Origin: Clostridia bacterium
GTDB taxonomy: Bacteria; Bacillota; Clostridia; UMGS1883
Length of the DNA: 64,000 nt
Direction: 5' to 3'
Assembly: GCA_045546275.1 (NCBI GenBank)
Contig: JAZQCM010000001.1
Location: 256,142 to 320,141, forward strand
A program made the translations under genes and the position numbers. Position 1 is the first letter of the stretch. Each line of letters opens with the position of its first letter. A model generated the notes under the pieces. That model had not been told where the DNA came from, made no database searches, and worked only from the letters and a program-made list of their open reading frames with translations. This document shows, in pieces, positions 953-25,560 of this stretch.

Positions 953-2394
953 AATAGCTTCAATGCCTCCATAATGCCATCACTAATTGCATTGGCAACT
1001 GCTTGTCTTCCATTTTCGCTGTTTAAGTACGCACGGTCTTTTTCGTTTGTAATAAAACCGCCCTCTGTCAAAATTGCAGGCATCTTTGTGTTTTTAAGCA
1101 CATACAAGGAGGAGCCATCCTGTACGCCTCGCTTTGTCATGTTGGTGTACTTAACAATTTTATCATAAACAATGGATGCAATTGCCTTACCTGACTCTGA
1201 TGCACTGTGATAATAAACCTGAGCACCGTCAATTTCCGGTTTGTTTTCCATTGCGTTGCAGTGTATTGATACGTATAAATCGGCGTTTATACTATTGGCC
1301 AGATCAACCCTTTCGGGAAGCGTGGGATAAGTGTCACCACTACGGGTCATAACAACATTAATTCCGGCATTCTTTAATGTTGCACTTACCTTCAATGCAA
1401 TGTCAAGCGTAATATCCTTTTCTCTTGCTTCAGGATATTTAGAGCCATGAGGGTAAATAGCACCGGGGTCTGTTCCACCGTGACCCGGGTCCAATACAAC
1501 CAAAAACTCATTTTCAGGGAACTGGGGGTAAGTAGGTTCTTGCGGAGCATCTGTCTCGGGCATTGAGGGGTCAGTGGGTTCAACAGGATCAGTTTCAAAC
1601 TCTGTATAATCTCTTGTTAAATAAATCTCTACACCGTTTTTTAACTTCAGAACCTCAAAATTAACATTACATAACAAATCCGCAACTATTCTGAATCTGT
1701 CCTCGTGCTGACTGTATCGGATTTTGTTTATAACATTTCCCGATTTATCAATTGAGCCATCCTTAATTCCGATTGTGTCATAAACATCAATTACAAGTCG
1801 TCTCGGATTGCTCATCTGGAATATATTGGGGTTTACAAATTCCTCCATTGCTATAAAAATGCAATCAGCCATATCCTCTTTGGAAAAACTAATTCCGGTT
1901 ATATTTCCTTTTTCTGTATCAGGTGCGGTAATTTTTACGGTACGTGTTTCGTTAATCCATTCAACAACAAAACCAAACTCTTCGGTAACAAATCTTACAG
2001 GTATCATAGTTTTATCGTTGATAATCTTTGGTGCAGGGTCCTCGGGTGCTATAGTGGTTGAATTGTCCCCTACATACACTGTTCTTGAGTCAATCGTTAA
2101 TACAATACGTTCACCTTCATATTCAATAATCACACGCCTTGCATTGTTATCCCAGTTAACAGATGCACCGAGCTTTTCAAAAAACTCACGGGCAGGAACC
2201 ATAGTTCTTCCATTAAGAATAATCGGGGGCATTTCGGTTGTTTCAACAGTATCTCCGTTGACCACAAGAACAATAGGATCCCAGGGATACTCTTCAACCA
2301 ATCCATCATAAACAATTGTAAATGCACTTACATTCACGGTTGAAATTAAAAGTACCACAACAGCTAAAAAGAAAGCTGTCGCTCGTCGCATCAT
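949..2394 (-). CDS. Secreted N-acetylmuramoyl-L-alanine amidase (copper-amine-oxidase-N/stalk domain, AMIN-like domain, Amidase_3)
   Basis: Signal peptide; NGRTMVPAR and KTMIPVRFV stalk motifs; NPRRLVID; catalytic DPGHGG, E, SIHCN, LTEGGF. Confidence 0.9.
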   Translation of the reverse strand: MMRRATAFFLAVVVLLISTVNVSAFTIVYDGLVEEYPWDPIVLVVNGDTVETTEMPPIILNGRTMVPAREFFEKLGASVNWDNNARRVIIEYEGERIVLTIDSRTVYVGDNSTTIAPEDPAPKIINDKTMIPVRFVTEEFGFVVEWINETRTVKITAPDTEKGNITGISFSKEDMADCIFIAMEEFVNPNIFQMSNPRRLVIDVYDTIGIKDGSIDKSGNVINKIRYSQHEDRFRIVADLLCNVNFEVLKLKNGVEIYLTRDYTEFETDPVEPTDPSMPETDAPQEPTYPQFPENEFLVVLDPGHGGTDPGAIYPHGSKYPEAREKDITLDIALKVSATLKNAGINVVMTRSGDTYPTLPERVDLANSINADLYVSIHCNAMENKPEIDGAQVYYHSASESGKAIASIVYDKIVKYTNMTKRGVQDGSSLYVLKNTKMPAILTEGGFITNEKDRAYLNSENGRQAVANAISDGIMEALKLL

Positions 2395-2411
2395 ATCACC
2401 TCCAATTAACT

Positions 2412-2438
2412 ATTCGACTTTTTATGCAAATTTCCTTT
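2412..2438 (-). promoter_or_regulatory. Putative sigma-H-type promoter of the amidase gene
   Basis: Minus strand AAAGGAAAT-N11-GTCGAAT matches the B. subtilis sigmaH consensus (RNAGGAWWW-N11/12-RNNGAAT), just upstream of a GGAGG RBS. Confidence 0.55.
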
Positions 2439-2464
2439 ATAATAAGCCATTTTGTAACATAACC

Positions 2465-3484
2465 TTAATATAGGCTTGTTTGCCCATCTTTAGGTGCAAT
2501 GTTGTAATGCTCGTATGCCATTCTTGTGGCAACTCTTCCACGAGGCGTTCTGTTCAAAAAGCCAAGCTGTAAAAGATAAGGTTCGTATACATCTTCAATC
2601 GTCCTGCTGTCTTCGCCGATAGTTGCAGCTAATGTGTCAAGACCAACAGGGCCTCCGTCAAAGGAAATCATAATAGATGTCATCATTTTCTTGTCAATTG
2701 CATCAAGTCCCAAGGGGTCGATTTCAAGAAGATTCAATGCTTCATCAGCACAGCCTTTTGAAATAACGCTTTCACGATTAACCTGCGCATAGTCTCTTAC
2801 TCTCTTTAAAAGCCTGTTTGCAATTCTCGGTGTACCTCGTGAACGGGATGCTATTTCTACTGCTCCATCCTCATCAATCTCAATACCAAGAATTTTACTG
2901 CTTCTCTTTACAATTCGTGAAAGGTCATAAGTGTTATAAAGCTCAAGTCGCTCAATAACACCAAATCTGTCTCTTAGCGGTGCGGACAAAAGTCCCGCTT
3001 TTGTGGTTGCGCCTACTAAAGTGAAGGGCTGCAAGCTAAGTCTTACACTTTGTGCACTGGGACCCTTACCAACAATAATATCCAGCGAAAAGTCTTCCAT
3101 TGCCGAGTAAAGAATTTCTTCCACTGTTCTTGAAAGACGATGTATTTCATCAATGAATAATATGTCCTGAGGGCCAAGATTCGTAAGAATTGCCGCCATA
3201 TCCATTGGCTTTTCAATGGCTGGACCACTTGTGATTTTAAGGTTTACCCCCATTTCGTTGGCTATAATGCCTGCCAAAGTGGTTTTTCCAAGACCGGGAG
3301 GACCATACAAAAGAGTGTGATCCAGCGCCTCTCGCCTTTCAAGTGCAGCCTTTATATAAATTTCCAAGGTTTGCTTTACCTTGTCCTGCCCCACATATTC
3401 ATCCATAGTTTTAGGCCTGATGCCAACTTCGGCATCGTCACCCATGAGCATGTTTGGCGAAATCATTCTATCATCAAATTCCAT
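2465..3484 (-). CDS. ruvB: Holliday junction branch migration ATPase RuvB
   Basis: [34 protein letters not shown]. Confidence 0.98.
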
Positions 3485-4070
3485 TGCTTAACCTCCTTAA
3501 TGCTTCCTTGATAATCTCTTCCGTTGTAAGATTTTCACCTGAAATCTGCATAACAGTTTTCTGTGCTTCGCTCGGTGAGCATCCCAATGCAATAAGTGCG
3601 TTAACCGCGCTTGAATCGGTGCTTGGACGATAAACATTAGCCTGGGGCGAGGTTGATACAATTTCTTCATTGTCGACCTTGCCTTTAAGCTCAAGAACGA
3701 TTCTTTGTGCCATTTTAGGGCCAATACCCTTTGCTTTTCCGATAGTTTTTGCATCAGAGGAAATTATTGCAAGTGCAAGGTCATTGGTTGTAAGTGCCGA
3801 AAGCAGTGAAACTGCCGCTTTGGGTCCAACACCCGAAACACTTATTAATCTTTTAAAATATGTTATGGAATCCTCGTTGGAAAAACCAAACAGCTCCATA
3901 ATGTCTTCACGGACATAAAGATAGGTATACACTGTAACATCTGTTCCAACTTCAGGAAGCTTATTAATGTCAAGTGTAGGCATGATAACAGAAAAGCCGA
4001 CACCATTAACATCTATAATTGCACCTGTTTCATCAACTTTTACAAGCTGTCCTCTTAAAAAGGATATCAT
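3474..4070 (-). CDS. ruvA: Holliday junction binding protein RuvA
   Basis: [35 protein letters not shown]. Confidence 0.97.
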
Positions 4071-19102: not shown

Positions 19103-19909
19103 ATGAAATCAAAAGCTGTTGCTGTCCCCTATTATGTGTGGATGGTTGTTTTTACAATTGTTCCATTATTTCTTGTAGGCATTTTTGCATTCACTGACGG
19201 AGATACAGGAAAGTTTACACTTTCAAACTTTTTTGAAATTGCCAAATATTTACCCACATTGTGGCGTTCAATTTACTACGCTGTTATAACAACTATTGTG
19301 TGCCTTCTTTTAGGTTTTCCTGCAGCGTATATCATTTCAAGACTGCCCGAAGAAAAGCAGTCTACTGTTCTTATGCTTTTAATGCTTCCCATGTGGATAA
19401 ACTTCATTTTGAGAACATATGCATGGATGAACATTTTAGATGCAAACGGTTTTATTAACCAGATACTTATGTTTTTCGGCTTAAAGCCCTTAAAAATGCT
19501 TAACACCTCTGCGGCGGTAATTTTAGGTATGATTTATAACAATCTGCCCTTTATGATTTTACCATTATATTCAATCATGACTAAAATTGACAAAAGCGTG
19601 ATTGAAGCTGCTCAGGACTTAGGTTGTTCCGATTCGAGCGTTATTAAAAAAGTAATTGTTCCCCTTTCAATTCCCGGCATTTCAACAGGCATCACCATGG
19701 TTTTTGTGCCTTCTGTATCAACATTCATTATTTCAAGAATGTTATCTGGATCAACAATCGGTCTTATTGGTGACCTTATTGAACAGGAGTTTTTAGGACT
19801 TAACTATGACCCCTATGTTGGTTCTGCCTTAAGCCTGATACTTATGGTAATTGTACTGATTATTATCGGCATATTTAACCAGTTCGGAGGGGAGGATGCT
19901 GTGGTATGA
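19103..19909 (+). CDS. potB: Spermidine/putrescine ABC transporter permease
   Basis: PMWINFILRTYAW, LPFMILP, EAAQDLG. Confidence 0.92.
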   Translation: MKSKAVAVPYYVWMVVFTIVPLFLVGIFAFTDGDTGKFTLSNFFEIAKYLPTLWRSIYYAVITTIVCLLLGFPAAYIISRLPEEKQSTVLMLLMLPMWINFILRTYAWMNILDANGFINQILMFFGLKPLKMLNTSAAVILGMIYNNLPFMILPLYSIMTKIDKSVIEAAQDLGCSDSSVIKKVIVPLSIPGISTGITMVFVPSVSTFIISRMLSGSTIGLIGDLIEQEFLGLNYDPYVGSALSLILMVIVLIIIGIFNQFGGEDAVV

Positions 19910-21870
19910 AAAAAACTTCACTCTCCAAGCTTTATATGGTACTCTTGGTGCTCTTTTTGTACCTGCCCATCTTAACTCTTGTTATTTTCTCCTTCAACGC
20001 TAATGACTCACGTGTTGCATGGGGTGGCTTCTCTTTAAGATGGTATGTGGCACTTTTCTCCGACCGCACGGTTATGCTGTCACTTTTTAACACATTGCTT
20101 CTTGCGGTTGTGGCATCTATCGTTTCAACAGCATTGGGCACAACCGCGGCAATAGGCATTAATAACCTTTCTAAAAAAACACGAAGCCTTGTAATGAACA
20201 TTACCTACATTCCCATTGTTAACCCCGAAATTATCATGGGTGTTTCATTAATGCTTTTGTTCAAGGTGTTCATGCGCTTTACTCCCCTTCAGTTTGGTTA
20301 TTTAACATTGGTACTTGCACACATTGCGTTCTGTGTACCTTACGTTATATTCCAGGTATTACCCAAGTTAAGGCAAATGAATCCCAATCTTCTTGAAGCT
20401 GCATATGACTTGGGCTGTAACTCCAGACAAGCATTTTTCAAGGTTGTAATTCCTGAAATATTGCCTGGCGTTTTTTCGGGTTTTATAATGGCTCTCACCT
20501 ATTCACTTGACGACTTTGTTGTCAGCTACTTTAATGCAGGTGACAGCGTTAATACTCTTCCAATTATCATCAATTCAATGACAAAGCGCAACATGGACCC
20601 CAGCATCAACGCACTTTCAACTCTTATTTTCCTTACTATTGTAATTATCCTTGTTGTTAAGAATTTTCTTGACAATAGAAGGCTGAGAGTTGAGCGCACT
20701 GAAAAGGAAGGCCTTCATTCCAGGAAAAAGACCATTGCACTTATTGTTGCAGGTGTGCTTTTACTTTCCTCAATAGGCGTTACAGTTGGTATTGTTCTTA
20801 ACATTGGTCCTACTCTTGAATTGGATATGCGACTGCTGTCAGGCTATGACTATACAAGATTTGCAAAGGATAAAATAACAATTAGTGTTGCAAACTGGGG
20901 CGAGTATCTTTGTATTGATGAACAGGACATGATAAATGTTAACGAGCAGTTTGAAGCTTTAACAGGCATTAAAGTTAATTACACTACCTACACCAACAAC
21001 GAAGAGCTTTATGCAAAGCTCAAGAGCGGCGGTGCTAATTACGACATTATTATTCCCTCTGATTACATGATTTCAAGGTTCATCAGAGAAGGCATGCTTC
21101 AGAAGCTCAACTACGAAAACATTCCTAATTTTGACACCAAAATTATGGATACCTTCAAAAATCTTTCTTATGACCCCGAAAACGAGTATACTGTTCCCTA
21201 CACCTGGGGCATGGTTTGTATTGTTTATAATAAAACTATGTACGATACTCCTCCCGACAGCTGGAGTGCACTTTGGGACGAAGCTCAAAAGGGCAACATT
21301 TTAATGTTCAATAACCCCCGTGATGCATTTGCTGTGGCACAGTGTTATCTTGGTTATTCGTTAAATACCACAGATAAAGACGAAATTGACAAAACCTTCG
21401 ACAAGCTTTATGAGCAGTACAGCTCAAATCTTGTACAAGCCTATGTAATGGATGAGGTTTTCGACAAAATGGAAGGCGGTAATGCTGCTGTCGCTCCCTA
21501 CTATGTAGGTGATGCGGTTTCTATGATGGAATCAAACCCTGATTTAGATTATTTCATCCCTAAGGAAGGCACAAACCGTTTTGTTGATGCAGCATGTATT
21601 CCTGTTGGCAGTAAAAATAAGGAAGCTGCAGAAATGTACATCAACTTCCTTTGCGAAACAGAAATCGCCCTTGCAAACTGCGAGTACATCGGTTATTCAA
21701 CTCCTCATAAGGAAGTTTTCGAGCTTCTTGATGACGAGGTTAAGAGCGATGAACGTCGTTATCCTTCAGACGAGTTTTTGAATGAAAAAACAGAGCTTTT
21801 CATAGCTCTTCCCGACGAAACAAACAACTACATCCAGTCGCTTTGGAATCAGATAAAGTTTGCAAATTAA
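19906..21870 (+). CDS. potC: Fused permease and substrate-binding protein (PotC-PotD)
   Basis: N-half FLYLPI...FSFN, EAAYDLG, SLDDF; C-half NWGEY, YDIIIPSDYMI, VPYTWG, PKEG. Confidence 0.9.
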   Translation: MKKTSLSKLYMVLLVLFLYLPILTLVIFSFNANDSRVAWGGFSLRWYVALFSDRTVMLSLFNTLLLAVVASIVSTALGTTAAIGINNLSKKTRSLVMNITYIPIVNPEIIMGVSLMLLFKVFMRFTPLQFGYLTLVLAHIAFCVPYVIFQVLPKLRQMNPNLLEAAYDLGCNSRQAFFKVVIPEILPGVFSGFIMALTYSLDDFVVSYFNAGDSVNTLPIIINSMTKRNMDPSINALSTLIFLTIVIILVVKNFLDNRRLRVERTEKEGLHSRKKTIALIVAGVLLLSSIGVTVGIVLNIGPTLELDMRLLSGYDYTRFAKDKITISVANWGEYLCIDEQDMINVNEQFEALTGIKVNYTTYTNNEELYAKLKSGGANYDIIIPSDYMISRFIREGMLQKLNYENIPNFDTKIMDTFKNLSYDPENEYTVPYTWGMVCIVYNKTMYDTPPDSWSALWDEAQKGNILMFNNPRDAFAVAQCYLGYSLNTTDKDEIDKTFDKLYEQYSSNLVQAYVMDEVFDKMEGGNAAVAPYYVGDAVSMMESNPDLDYFIPKEGTNRFVDAACIPVGSKNKEAAEMYINFLCETEIALANCEYIGYSTPHKEVFELLDDEVKSDERRYPSDEFLNEKTELFIALPDETNNYIQSLWNQIKFAN

Positions 21871-21873
21871 TTC

Positions 21874-21906
21874 AAAAGGTTGCAGGAAACTATCCTGCAA
21901 CCTTTT
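21874..21906. terminator. Bidirectional rho-independent terminator
   Basis: AAAAGGTTGCAGGA-aacta-TCCTGCAACCTTTT. Confidence 0.85.
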
Positions 21907-21910
21907 TATG

Positions 21911-23209
21911 TTAATCTCCGAAATTCACATTATTCCAGTATTCCGGTGCTTCAAAACCACTCCATCCATAGGGTGAATTATCCACATAATCATATACAAT
22001 ACTTAAAATCTTGTTATCATAATTTAATATTTCAACTTTGATAAGTGCCATATTCTCGGCATAGTCAATATCTATAATTTTATAATCCGCATTAATATAA
22101 CCTGTTCTTGAAAGTATTCTTGGTATATCAGTTGCGATTTTGGCAATCAGTTCATTATATTTATTTGTTTCAAAATATAATTCGGGGTTTACATCCTCTC
22201 CGTTAACTTTAACCTCCATATGTAAATGGGCTCCTACCGAAGTTCCTGTATTTCCAACATTGCCTAATATGTCGCCTTTTGAAATTCGCATTATTCTCTT
22301 TGGTTCCGCTAATATACTTATATCAAGATTACAATATGTTATCTCTACGCCATTTTCACCGGATATGGTTACATAAGCTCCTTTTTCGTCATCATAATCA
22401 ACTTCAAATTCGCCATCAATACCTGCATAAACAGGTGTGCCTTCTTCTGCTTTAAAGTCCAAACCGTTATGGAATCTTTCTTCACCGGTTATAGGGTGAA
22501 CTCTTTTTCCGAATTTTTGAGTTATTTCATAATATCCCTTAATAGGATATGTAATACTGAGAGTCGCCCCTGAATATTTGAATTCCAAATTATACAAATC
22601 AGGCGGCGATAAATAACCATAATCCGCTCTTTCCGCCATTCTTTCAGCATAAGAAAATGGCACATATACAATATTTCCATTAAGAATAGGCGCATTGTCC
22701 ATGGGTTCAACAACACTTGTTACCTCATCGGGAGTATTTTTAACCATTAAAACCTCTGGATTTACAACAAGTTCGCTCTTCCCGATTTCAACTTTATACA
22801 AATAACTTGTATATTCCGCTATAACATCTTCGTTTAAGTTTTTTTGACAAAGTGAAATTAACACTATATTGTTTTTCAGCTCAATTTTCGCGTTTTCACT
22901 CTCCATTAAACCAAGCTTTGTAAAAAGCTCATGAAGCGGAACATAAACCTCTCCATTTTCAATAAAAGGTTTATTTTCAAGTTCAATTATTTCCCCGTTA
23001 TTGGTAATATCAAGAGTATATTTAGAATTATCGTTTTCAATTTGTGCCATAACTATTGTCCCTAATGCAAAAACCGTTAGAATTGTAACCATGCACAACA
23101 TTGAAAGTAACCATCTTAGTCTAACAGGCTTAGCTGTGATTTTCTCAAATCGTTTTCTTAATGCTTTGCTATTTCCACTCATCTGTGTTGTGTAAACATT
23201 TTTAAACAT
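21911..23209 (-). CDS. Membrane-anchored protein: BlaR1-tail-like N-terminus, TM helix, copper-amine-oxidase-N/stalk domain, M23 peptidase domain
   Basis: YTTQMSGNSKALRKRFEKI then a hydrophobic helix; PFIENGEVYVP and PILNGNIVYVP; HPITG..FHNGLDF and GAHLHMEV. Confidence 0.8.
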   Translation of the reverse strand: MFKNVYTTQMSGNSKALRKRFEKITAKPVRLRWLLSMLCMVTILTVFALGTIVMAQIENDNSKYTLDITNNGEIIELENKPFIENGEVYVPLHELFTKLGLMESENAKIELKNNIVLISLCQKNLNEDVIAEYTSYLYKVEIGKSELVVNPEVLMVKNTPDEVTSVVEPMDNAPILNGNIVYVPFSYAERMAERADYGYLSPPDLYNLEFKYSGATLSITYPIKGYYEITQKFGKRVHPITGEERFHNGLDFKAEEGTPVYAGIDGEFEVDYDDEKGAYVTISGENGVEITYCNLDISILAEPKRIMRISKGDILGNVGNTGTSVGAHLHMEVKVNGEDVNPELYFETNKYNELIAKIATDIPRILSRTGYINADYKIIDIDYAENMALIKVEILNYDNKILSIVYDYVDNSPYGWSGFEAPEYWNNVNFGD

Positions 23210-23213
23210 CAAA

Positions 23214-24023
23214 TCACTTCCTTGCTAACAAATTTAATATTGTATTCATATATGTTTTTTTACATTCTTCATTCATGTTTTGTGTTACAATTTCGTCGCA
23301 GTAAATTTCACACGCTTCATTAAGATTTTTCATGACAATATACATTAAAGGATTAAACCAATTAATCGCATTAACTATACACGCAAACCATTTAACGGGC
23401 AAATCCTTATGTTTATAGTGAGTCAGTTCATGACTATAAACATATAGCAGTTCACTATCAATCAATTCTTTTTCCGGCATATACACAACAGGGAAAAATA
23501 CACCTGTAAGCATTGGTGAATCAATGTTTTTGCATTGTCTGAGCTTGATTTTTTGTTTTATACCCATTGATTGCAAAATGTTTATAAATATCTCATCTGC
23601 AACAGATGTGCTTACCTTACGTTTTCTTATAAGAAATGTTATATATCCGACAACATTCAATGTTAAAAACGTTATTATACCAGCACACCATATGACCATA
23701 TAAATATTAACTACACTTTTTGATGAAGCAATATCTACATCAGGAATAACGATGGCTTCTTTGGTATTCTCCGGCATTACAACCTCACTATCATCCACAT
23801 CTATTTCTTCAGAATAATAAGGTAGTATTATTGGAGGCGCTGCATTCTCAGGCACAACCTTCCAAACAGGAATTAGAAACATTACAGCGGCAAAAATCCA
23901 CAGATTTCTCTGCCATTTGCCGGAAAATATTTTACAAATAACATATTTTAGTAAAATGAGTAGTACAACAAGCGCACTTCCTTGTATGTTTAAAAATATT
24001 AATGTTTTCATAAGCTCCGGCAT
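23214..24023 (-). CDS. BlaR1/MecR1-type M56 metallopeptidase lacking the C-terminal TM helix and sensor
   Basis: SPMLTG..P, HELTHYKHKD, INWFNPL, EACEIYCDE; ends at YMNTILNLLARK. Confidence 0.9.
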   Translation of the reverse strand: MPELMKTLIFLNIQGSALVVLLILLKYVICKIFSGKWQRNLWIFAAVMFLIPVWKVVPENAAPPIILPYYSEEIDVDDSEVVMPENTKEAIVIPDVDIASSKSVVNIYMVIWCAGIITFLTLNVVGYITFLIRKRKVSTSVADEIFINILQSMGIKQKIKLRQCKNIDSPMLTGVFFPVVYMPEKELIDSELLYVYSHELTHYKHKDLPVKWFACIVNAINWFNPLMYIVMKNLNEACEIYCDEIVTQNMNEECKKTYMNTILNLLARK

Positions 24024-24025
24024 AA

Positions 24026-24385
24026 TCAATCACCATTAATAATTTTTCTTAAATCTTCAATTTCTTCCTTTGAAAGCTCTTTATTTTCATATAGACAAGC
24101 CACCAGATTTCCAATAGAACCTTGATAAAGCTTCGACAAAAAGCTTTTTGTTTCACTCATACTATATTCCTGCTCTTTAGTAATCGCATAATACAAATTA
24201 CTTTTCCCCTGCTTTTCGTAGGCAACAACACCTTTATCACAAAGACGTGATAAAAGTGTGCCAACTGTATTTCGCGCCCAATCCACATATAATTTTGACA
24301 TGATTTCGCCTAATGAAAGTGCTTTATCGCTACTCCACAACACCTTCATTACCTCATATTCGGACTCAGTAATATTTTTAGACAT
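24026..24385 (-). CDS. BlaI/MecI/CopY family repressor
   Basis: ITESEYEVMKVLW, WARNTVGTLLSRLCDKG, LSKEEIEDL. Confidence 0.95.
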   Translation of the reverse strand: MSKNITESEYEVMKVLWSSDKALSLGEIMSKLYVDWARNTVGTLLSRLCDKGVVAYEKQGKSNLYYAITKEQEYSMSETKSFLSKLYQGSIGNLVACLYENKELSKEEIEDLRKIINGD

Positions 24386-24404
24386 TTTAAAACCTCCTTT
24401 TAAG

Positions 24405-24454
24405 ACTACAATTGTAGTTAAATATATTATAGCCTACACTTGTAGTCTTGTCAA
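24405..24454 (-). promoter_or_regulatory. blaI-like promoter with two BlaI/MecI-type operators
   Basis: TTGACA (24454-24449)-17-TATAAT (24431-24426); operators ACTACAatTGTAGT (24405-24418) and CTACActTGTAG (24434-24445) match TACA-N2-TGTA. Confidence 0.88.
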
Positions 24455-24460
24455 GAGGAA

Positions 24461-24499
24461 AATTTTAAAGAGGATAGAAAATCTATCCTCTTTAAAATT
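24461..24499. repeat. Perfect 18-bp inverted repeat
   Basis: AATTTTAAAGAGGATAGA-aaa-TCTATCCTCTTTAAAATT. Confidence 0.8.
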
Positions 24500-24513
24500 C
24501 CAATTGACTTACG

Positions 24514-24543
24514 AAAACACACCACTCAAGTTGAGTGGTGTGT
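24514..24543 (-). terminator. Terminator of the GGGtGRT operon
   Basis: ACACACCACTCAA-g-TTGAGTGGTGTGT followed by a T run on the minus strand. Confidence 0.75.
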
Positions 24544-24561
24544 GTCTTTAAATCATACAAA

Positions 24562-25560
24562 TTACTTGCAGCTTTCTTCAACTGCAACTGCACATGCAAC
24601 AGTCATACCAACCATGGGGTTGTTACCTGCGCCCATCAAGCCCATCATTTCTACGTGAGCGGGTACAGAGGAAGAACCTGCAAACTGAGCATCAGAGTGC
24701 ATTCTACCCATTGTATCTGTCATACCGTAGGAAGCAGGACCTGCAGCCATGTTATCGGGGTGAAGTGTACGACCTGTACCGCCACCGGAAGCAACGGAGA
24801 AGTACTTCTTACCCTTTTCGATACATTCCTTCTTGTATGTGCCTGCAACAGGATGCTGGAAACGTGTGGGGTTAGTGGAGTTACCTGTGATGGAAACGTC
24901 AACGTCTTCAAGATGCATGATAGCAACGCCTTCACGAACGTCGTCAGCGCCGTAGCAACGAACCTTGCTCTTTTCGCCGTCAGAATATGCCTTTTCGTAT
25001 ACAACGTTAACCTTACCTGTCATATAGTCGAATTTTGTTTCAACATATGTGAAACCGTTGATTCTGGAAATAATCTGAGCAGCGTCCTTACCAAGACCGT
25101 TAAGGATAACCTGGAGAGGCTGCTGACGTACTTTGTTAGCACTCTTAGCAATACCGATAGCACCTTCAGCAGCTGCGAAGGATTCGTGACCTGCAAGGAA
25201 TGCAAAGCACTTTGTTTCTTCACGAAGGAGCATTGCAGCAAGGTTACCGTGACCGATACCTACTTTTCTGTCGTCAGCAACAGAACCGGGGATACAGAAG
25301 GACTGAAGGCCTTCACCGATAGCTTCTGCTGCGTCAGCTGCCTTTGTACAACCCTTCTTAATAGCGATAGCTGTACCTGTGATATATGCCCAACATGTGT
25401 TTTCAAAACAGATAGGCTGAATGCCCTTAACAAGGTTATATACATCGATACCCTTGTCTTTACAGATCTGTTCTGCTTCCTCAAGGGAGGAAATACCGTA
25501 CTTATTAAGAACGGGTGTAATCTGATTTATTCTTCTTTCATAACTTTCAAATAATGCCAT
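24562..25560 (-). CDS. GGGtGRT family protein (uncharacterised)
   Basis: Signature SVASGGGTGRTLHPDN; MALFESYERRI N-terminus; 332 aa. Confidence 0.93.
   Translation of the reverse strand: MALFESYERRINQITPVLNKYGISSLEEAEQICKDKGIDVYNLVKGIQPICFENTCWAYITGTAIAIKKGCTKAADAAEAIGEGLQSFCIPGSVADDRKVGIGHGNLAAMLLREETKCFAFLAGHESFAAAEGAIGIAKSANKVRQQPLQVILNGLGKDAAQIISRINGFTYVETKFDYMTGKVNVVYEKAYSDGEKSKVRCYGADDVREGVAIMHLEDVDVSITGNSTNPTRFQHPVAGTYKKECIEKGKKYFSVASGGGTGRTLHPDNMAAGPASYGMTDTMGRMHSDAQFAGSSSVPAHVEMMGLMGAGNNPMVGMTVACAVAVEESCK

Follow-up and report, generated by a model that had tools for sequence, protein, structure and literature searches.

Can a membrane receptor of the BlaR1 type be made as two polypeptides, one bearing the protease and the other the outer domain? 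Receptors of this kind are the classical example of a signal relayed by cutting a repressor directly, and what their autocleavage loop does is a matter of continuing debate. The question is raised by an operon of three genes in a gut Clostridia bacterium (lineage UMGS1883), on the minus strand at positions 21911..24454 of a 64,000-nucleotide (nt) stretch of contig JAZQCM010000001.1, assembly GCA_045546275.1; this whole stretch is referred to below as the window. The operon encodes a BlaI-type repressor, a truncated M56 protease (the core) and a membrane protein with extracellular domains (the module). It probably represents a BlaI/BlaR-type membrane-protease switch whose receptor is produced as two separate chains. 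This reading draws on the gene structure, homology, catalytic residues and topology, and on the conservation and linkage of the split, all of which were established here.

Gene organization of the probable split receptor

The three tightly packed minus-strand genes are bounded by a promoter and a terminator and form a self-contained operon. The first (24026..24385) encodes a 119-residue repressor of the Penicillinase_R family (PF03965, 1.1e-31 in Pfam), to which MecI and BlaI structures match at E values of 5e-19 to 1e-14. The second (23214..24029, starting at TTG 24029 or possibly at ATG 24023) encodes the 271-residue M56 core (PF05569), which ends in ...YMNTILNLLARK. The third open reading frame (ORF) runs from ATG 23209 to 21911, begins with MFKNVYTTQMSGNSKALRKRFEKI and is 432 residues long, or 433 if TTG 23212 is used. 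The split junction between the last two genes (23209..23216) consists of a TGA, 4 nt and an ATG in another frame. Its sequence, gcaAGGAAGTGAtttgATGtttaaa, is read as AGG AAG TGA tttg ATG, and a ribosome-binding site, AAGGAAG, ends 7 nt 5' of the module ATG. A first-pass annotation had proposed that BlaR1 is divided here into an M56 gene and a separate following ORF, with blaI upstream; this arrangement is borne out on the minus strand, together with the stop, the frame change and the AAGGAAG that it had described at the junction.

The promoter (24426..24454), TTGACA-17-TATAAT, agrees with the sigma-70 consensus at 12 of 12 positions. An operator-like palindrome, CTACAnnTGTAG, lies between its -35 and -10 hexamers (24434..24445) and a second, CTACAATTGTAG, between the -10 hexamer and the ribosome-binding site (24406..24417). 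Both palindromes of the CTACAnnTGTAG type overlap the operon promoter, and nowhere else in the 2.34-Mb genome do two such sites lie close together. The locus accordingly displays what defines a BlaI/MecI system, a Penicillinase_R repressor directly upstream and paired palindromic operators at the promoter. Where S. aureus BlaI is cut (LVLN|F), the repressor has LVAC|LY at the homologous site. A wider BlaI regulon was also considered: three other single strict CTACAnnTGTAG sites occur in the genome, all inside coding regions, and were judged to be chance occurrences. The genome holds one M56 gene and one protein of the third-gene type. The operon ends after the module at an intrinsic terminator (21874..21906, minus strand), a 14-bp stem followed by a T-run, and contains no linked beta-lactamase or PBP2a gene.

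The break falls at the autocleavage loop

The core matches Peptidase_M56 at 3.5e-43, with 148.3 bits against a cut-off of 31, over profile positions 3-268 of 296, the last ~28 positions being absent. The NCBIfam model blaR1_generic gives 110.5 bits, under its cut-off of 400. The core comprises three membrane helices and a cytoplasmic gluzincin domain that extends as far as, and includes, the counterpart of helix alpha8 of BlaR1. Its residues H200, E201, H204, E241, D245, Y260 and I264 correspond to H201, E202, H205, E242, D246, Y261 and I265 of BlaR1, and this active-site set of seven is invariant in 12/12 cores.

In the excerpted text of the structural study of S. aureus BlaR1 (PMC9834060), the autocleavage loop spans residues 271-289 and joins helix alpha8 to the domain-swapped alpha9. 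The cut occurs at S283|F284, with L280-F284 as P4-P1', and R294 of alpha9 is paired with D246 from the opposite protomer. Cut or uncut, the loop occupies the active site and must leave before BlaI is cleaved. The Clostridia core ends at about BlaR1 residue 272, at the start of this loop: the stop codon follows residue 271 and the rest of the receptor is found in the next gene, and not in a single polypeptide as in BlaR1 and MecR1.

The correspondence between the module and the missing part of the core is drawn through a fused relative of 611 residues, P0039. Residues 1-275 of this protein align with the M56 ORF (30% identity, E 3e-38), and from residue 286 it aligns with the third ORF from the residue 7 of the latter (32%, E 1e-29). 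P0039 in turn matches S. aureus BlaR1 (8EXP) at E 6.5e-15, its segment ...LTTQMASSKKILKRRF falling on ...LSHSFNGKKSLLKRRL of BlaR1. In the register obtained through P0039, module residues Y6 T7 T8 Q9|M10 are the equivalent of BlaR1 L280-F284 (P4-P1', LSHS|F), and the helix that follows carries R20, the equivalent of R294. The loop strand and the arginine helix of a BlaR1 receptor are both present, but they sit on the second chain. A profile of 15 N-terminal peptides (N-peptides) places positions 4-56 on BlaR1 278-332 in the same register; this direct comparison with solved structures, a weak match at E 0.065, was used only for the alignment register.

Residues 1-26 of the module (23132..23209), homologous to the loop and helix of BlaR1, are referred to as the adaptor peptide. 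M1, Y6, T7, T8, M10, L17, R20, F21 and I24 are invariant in 26/26 orthologues that are 34-68% identical overall. A single membrane helix follows (residues 37-55, 23045..23101), with its N-terminus inside, equivalent to the fourth membrane helix of BlaR1. By hydropathy and charge, the protease domain and the N-peptide are assigned to the cytoplasm and the M23 part to the outside, a topology that fits that of BlaR1. In the AlphaFold model of the module (mean predicted local distance difference test, pLDDT, 82), helices span residues 14-26 and 32-59, the latter being the membrane helix, and the N-terminus is of low confidence.

These alignments bear on the idea that the two genes are mere neighbours, a sensor-less M56 regulator beside an ordinary membrane M23 peptidase. 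There are indeed short M56 proteins that lack a module and carry a last helix of their own (loci L038, L073, L074 and L077). However, the first ~60 residues of the module are homologous to the post-protease segment of fused relatives and of BlaR1, the core is devoid of exactly that segment, and the two genes are linked in 29/29 and 40/42 cases in the surveys described below, so that an accidental association is scarcely credible.

Conservation and distribution of the split

If the split were unique to this assembly, close relatives would be expected to encode one fused ORF, as the first-pass annotation had pointed out. The split is instead present in 7/10 genomes of the same genus, as well as in other families, and chance is excluded by this conservation as the source of the arrangement. 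Among the best 120 module homologues, the first 32 are all stand-alone proteins of 339-478 residues with M23 and Cu_amine_oxidN1 domains and without M56; all 32 contain YTTxM, at residue 6 in 30 of them and at residue 14 in the other 2.

A pattern-based locus search in contigs yielded only 2 loci, which is why whole genomes were searched. In 61 related genomes, the N-peptide profile found 36 matches, 29 strong and 7 weak. The strong matches (E 3.4e-18 or better) begin at profile position 1 or 2 of frames of 83-518 residues, and 29/29, at 18 loci, lie directly 3' of a truncated M56 gene; the 7 weak ones are internal to fused frames of 632-954 residues. The M56 matches preceding modules end at profile position 271-281, or at 295 if the match continues past the stop into the module. 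Loci that carry the adaptor of the present operon (class 1; a second class is described below) have between one and three modules for each core. Overall, 26 split loci were verified among the 68 M56 match rows of these genomes, with one further case at a contig end, and blaI with paired operators lies upstream of split loci wherever upstream sequence exists.

In a class-wide sample of 301 genomes drawn evenly, class-1 adaptors occur in 25/301 genomes, in 16/177 genera and at least 9 families, and class-2 adaptors in 7/301 genomes, one of them inside a 700-residue frame; about 1 in 10 sampled Clostridia species has a split locus. In the 21 newly examined genomes, 40/42 class-1 matches belong to same-strand arrays starting at a short M56 gene. 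The remaining two are found at a contig end (L078) and after blaI without a core (L079). At L079 (locus coordinates 1851-3502, minus strand), a 382-residue class-1 module begins 131 nt after blaI; the genome has other short M56 cores elsewhere, which might serve this module in trans, and it would then be a true orphan.

A frameshifted pseudogene of a fused M56-M23 gene, through decay or an assembly error, would produce a comparable picture in a single genome. Fused M56-M23 and M56-Cu_amine_oxidN1 proteins exist, and one module orthologue is itself interrupted (G009:C70). Against this, the split is conserved over genera and families with both ORFs intact and functional residues invariant, and the split cores form a well-supported clade (100/98). 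Moreover, a 166-nt contig from another metagenome bridges the junction (23115-23280) with 9 differences and no gaps. The intact promoter, operators and ORFs had already been put forward in the first-pass annotation as an argument against decay, and the full promoter consensus, the palindromes, the terminator and the conserved split uphold it; decay or misassembly is extremely improbable and in practice refuted. In the interrupted orthologue (L025, 3418-4704), a 75-residue ORF with the N-peptide is followed by a 339-residue ORF; the match holds one TAG, and either this copy is broken or the assembly of that genome is in error here.

Could a fused protein nonetheless be made, if ribosomes shifted frame in a programmed manner or read through the stop codon at the junction? 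Two relatives have both ORFs in the same frame with a single TAA between them (G027:C5 and G046:C39). However, first-module junctions range from an 8-nt overlap to a 17-nt gap and most change frame, no shared slippery element was seen, and every module is provided with a separate ribosome-binding site and ATG. In 142 of the best 150 sequence clusters retrieved with the N-peptide, the N-terminal Met and the five residues that precede YTT do not vary, and the second to fourth modules of tandem arrays cannot be fused to a core at all. Recoding is therefore very improbable. Between genes, gaps of -31 to +19 nt and varying frames were recorded (30/33 listed starts having neighbours caught by the pattern), and a GGAGG-like ribosome-binding site precedes each module start; these features argue for separate, coupled translation rather than recoding. 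At one locus (L080, G341:C37, 1617-2057), a spacer of ~440 nt separates the core stop from the module start, as compared to -31 to +19 nt elsewhere.

Interchangeable modules and a second adaptor class

Relatives attach several outer modules to one core because the adaptor peptide is a separate cassette. At locus L001 (same species as G003), a 283-residue core is followed by a 474-residue Cu_amine_oxidN1 and LprI module and then by a 420-residue M23 module, both of which begin with M[FL]KNIYTT; genomes G006 and G044 have three modules per core. Tandem modules of one locus are 53-93% identical over their first 30 residues and 21-51% identical in their outer parts. The interchangeable modules envisaged in the first-pass annotation receive direct support from arrays in which one truncated M56 gene is followed by 2-4 tandem genes that share the N-peptide and differ in their outer domains.

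A search of 1.84 billion cluster representatives with a 62-residue profile gave 235 matches at E 1e-3 or better, 123 of them at 1e-10 or better. Among the best 150 of these 235 clusters, the match falls within the first 24 residues in every case and starts at residue 1 in 142, which agrees with the earlier expectation that the motif should occur at protein N-termini. These 150 proteins are 60-708 residues long and their families are diverse: Cu_amine_oxidN1 (43), M23 (25), Big_14 (5), LprI (3), DUF4829 (3), LytR_cpsA_psr (2), DUF5050 (1) and DUF4825 (1), with no family for 86. None of the best 150 contains an M56 domain.

Besides the class-1 loci, the 61 genomes contain 13 further short M56 genes without a class-1 adaptor. 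Eight of the 13 are followed by one to four genes starting with MKKYIxPPxLSTSFSESGKxAKxRF, which define the second adaptor class; its LSTS|F, with an arginine ten residues on, matches the LSHS|F...R294 of BlaR1 more closely than class 1 does. One of the 13 stops at a contig end and four (L038, L073, L074 and L077) are of a different type, 311-316 residues long with their own last membrane helix. In these four loci, BlaI and the M56 protein of 311-316 residues are followed by a 318-328-residue membrane protein without known family, which begins with MKKYY..., or MSKFQKYW... in L077. A word-based census of class-2 adaptors gave 4 matches only, this method being insensitive for 60 residues.

When 69 cores were placed in a maximum-likelihood tree, the 18 class-1 split cores grouped in a single clade (the 100/98 support mentioned above), sister to 18 fused 'PLTTxM' proteins. 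The nine class-2 cores form another clade (100/99), which includes one fused protein whose genome also carries a split copy. The two clades imply that fission occurred at least twice, or that a split form was re-fused. In genome G059 (L036, G059:C104, 1469-2326, and L045, G059:C243), a 285-residue split core ends in a loop-like remnant, ...AILSTYLSGG..., while the next gene brings its own LSTNF loop, and a close fused paralogue (569-residue frame) is present in the same genome. This remnant-bearing core may be a snapshot of how fission or re-fusion arises.

It is tempting to generalize these arrangements. The M56 core would be a shared hub, and the ~30-residue cytoplasmic adaptor would let any membrane-anchored outer domain plug in. 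One protease/BlaI pair could then integrate several envelope inputs, new sensors would evolve by cassette exchange, and the same fission would have arisen at least twice at the same loop. This wider proposal is tentative, and we give it slightly less than even weight. Since BlaR1 is a domain-swapped dimer, a core dimer could also combine with two different modules into a mixed complex.

Outer domains of the module

Beyond the membrane helix, the module exhibits an extracellular Cu_amine_oxidN1 domain (PF07833, 22646..22999) and an M23 peptidase domain (PF01551, 22184..22477), the only two families found in it; a penicillin-binding sensor domain is absent from these Pfam results. Peptidase_M23 scores 66.4 bits against a cut-off of 28.7. 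Its motifs are HNGLD at 247 and HLH at 328-330, and H247, D251, H328 and H330 are intact and invariant in 26 orthologues. Judged from these residues, the M23 domain is apparently active. A fold search with the AlphaFold model of the module returned only M23 peptidases, such as ShyA. The C-terminal ~83 residues (21911..22162, with the stop codon) are modelled as a helix and a beta-sheet; they have no family match in Pfam, and the fold search gave no match that bears on them.

The first-pass annotation had called this chain a sensor subunit. A separate chain bearing the outer domains is indeed present; its role as a sensor has to be qualified, as the outer domain, which keeps all M23 catalytic residues, may equally be an effector.

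Proposed mechanism and its weak points

Membrane helices 1-3 and the zinc protease of the cytoplasmic side would come from the second gene, which stops at the start of the autocleavage loop. The third would provide the substrate-like strand YTTQ|M, the arginine helix, the fourth membrane helix and the extracellular part, made up of Cu_amine_oxidN1 and an M23 peptidoglycan endopeptidase. Assembly of the chains, autoinhibition, the signal and BlaI cleavage are inferred. In the membrane, the two chains would form the equivalent of self-cleaved BlaR1, with R20 of the module completing the active site. The N-peptide would occupy the protease cleft as a substrate or pseudosubstrate, keeping the protease autoinhibited as the BlaR1 loop does. 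A cell-wall-related event at the outer domain, whose nature suggests a cell-envelope signal, would shift the helix and free the cleft. BlaI would then be cut and the operon, its only evident target, derepressed, yielding more protease and more M23 hydrolase.

Docking of the N-peptide on the protease is suggested by homology with the BlaR1 structure and by a weak complex prediction. The prediction, computed for the core and module residues 1-62 with alignments made in this analysis, scored 0.49 in three runs, and the best control scored 0.00. The runs agree in at least 91% of contacts, with a partner pLDDT of at least 72. The mark passed here is reached by 116/157 solved complexes and 2/215 mismatches, although only 18/157 solved complexes, and both mismatches, reach it at 0.60 or under.

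Several observations weigh against the proposed two-chain switch. Both chains are known here as sequences and predictions, the single RNA run that was found contained just 0.04 of the sampled words, and all genomes are metagenome-assembled or representative genomes. The complex prediction is weak and comes without an interface, and its pass may reflect likeness to 8EXP alone, because the BlaR1 structure is solved. The E value of 0.065 that links the N-peptide profile directly to BlaR1 is not significant alone and was outscored by that of a surfactant-protein membrane helix (E 0.026). At L079 (G142:C65), a module comes directly after blaI, and an M56 core is missing from between them. The P1' residue of the loop is Met in class 1 and Phe in class 2, and the corresponding residue of the BlaI site is Leu in both; because this Leu does not change with the adaptor class, the idea that the loop mimics BlaI has no support from covariation. 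Finally, the M23 domain is catalytically intact in 46/53 modules, and an effector accounts for this no less well than a sensor; the outer domain could be the one as much as the other.

The last point leads to the alternative that modules are substrates or clients of the protease. The M56 core would trim the N-terminal nonapeptide or hold hydrolases, thereby timing the activity of membrane-tethered cell-wall enzymes (M23, LytR-type and LprI-type), and BlaI cleavage would be secondary or constitutive. Besides the retained M23 residues, this explanation accommodates outer domains that are mostly cell-envelope enzymes or binders, a strand that keeps the full P4-P1' substrate register, and a module that is the operon's sole non-regulatory product in this genome. 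However, the presence of BlaI and paired operators upstream, wherever sequence is available, speaks for signalling, and those fused relatives that carry the same outer domains are laid out as ordinary BlaR receptors. We consider the client explanation unlikely as a replacement for the two-chain switch; the two are not mutually exclusive.

Neighbouring features

Convergent on the operon, a 654-residue ORF on the plus strand (window 19906-21870) resembles a polyamine-transporter permease fused to a substrate-binding domain. The same type of neighbour flanks the operon in genus relatives L001 and L005-L009, and the locus is therefore syntenic. On the other side, just 5' of the operon promoter, a perfect 18-nt inverted repeat with a 3-nt loop (24461-24499) is probably the terminator of the upstream gene 24562-25560; a second, imperfect hairpin of 25 nt is found at 24505-24555.

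Comparison with known systems

The M56 family has been surveyed by Kurtz et al. (2026, J Bacteriol, PMC13492132). According to the main text of that article, M56 proteins occur in 254 domain architectures, among which fused M56-M23 proteins are common; ~6% of M56 proteins carry a penicillin-binding domain and BlaI is linked in ~96%. A role in the cell envelope is proposed there, and CenIR of C. difficile controls a peptidoglycan hydrolase. The split receptors belong to this same family and share the same kinds of outer domain (M23, DUF4825), unlike the fused proteins in that these are treated in the main text as single polypeptides. A term search of the main text returned no mention of a split, truncated or separate gene; split cores may be concealed in the most frequent class of that survey, 'M56 with no identifiable C-terminal domain'. 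No description of a split M56/BlaR1 was found in a literature search in which some papers were judged by title and abstract opening. The mycobacterial sensor-less BlaR homologues cited in the main text of the same article, together with L038, L073, L074 and L077, are similar in having a short M56 protein beside a BlaI-type repressor. Unlike the split cores, L038, L073, L074 and L077 keep a C-terminal membrane helix and are without a downstream loop-peptide gene.

Proteins of the module type are annotated as 'peptidoglycan DD-metalloendopeptidase family protein' or 'hypothetical protein', and are read here as receptor halves. As loop, active-site arginine helix and sensor reside on a separate chain, nature here provides a way of testing the BlaR1 model, in which naturally occurring mix-and-match parts can be used to address loop autoinhibition and transmission via the last membrane helix. 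The tandem arrays of modules suggest a modular multi-input switch, of relevance to the engineering of transmembrane sensors.

S. aureus BlaR1/BlaI (8EXP-8EXT; PMC9834060, in its excerpted text) and MecR1/MecI remain the closest points of reference. The Clostridia operon resembles them by its upstream winged-helix repressor with TACA/TGTA-type palindromes. It further shares with BlaR1 the M56 gluzincin with the same catalytic residues, the loop strand with a bulky hydrophobic P1' and an arginine ten residues on, and the fourth membrane helix followed by an outer domain. It differs from BlaR1 by an outer domain composed of Cu_amine_oxidN1 and M23 instead of a penicillin-binding domain, by the absence of a beta-lactamase or PBP2a gene in the operon, and, in relatives, by several modules per core. 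The system is therefore placed in the BlaI/BlaR kind and is not a canonical BlaR1, which is a single polypeptide with a penicillin-binding sensor. BlaR1 itself, as the same excerpts describe, becomes a two-chain complex after the S283|F284 cut. In the Clostridia receptor the chain break is genetic; it lies ~11 residues before the equivalent of that cut and leaves the whole loop on the second chain.

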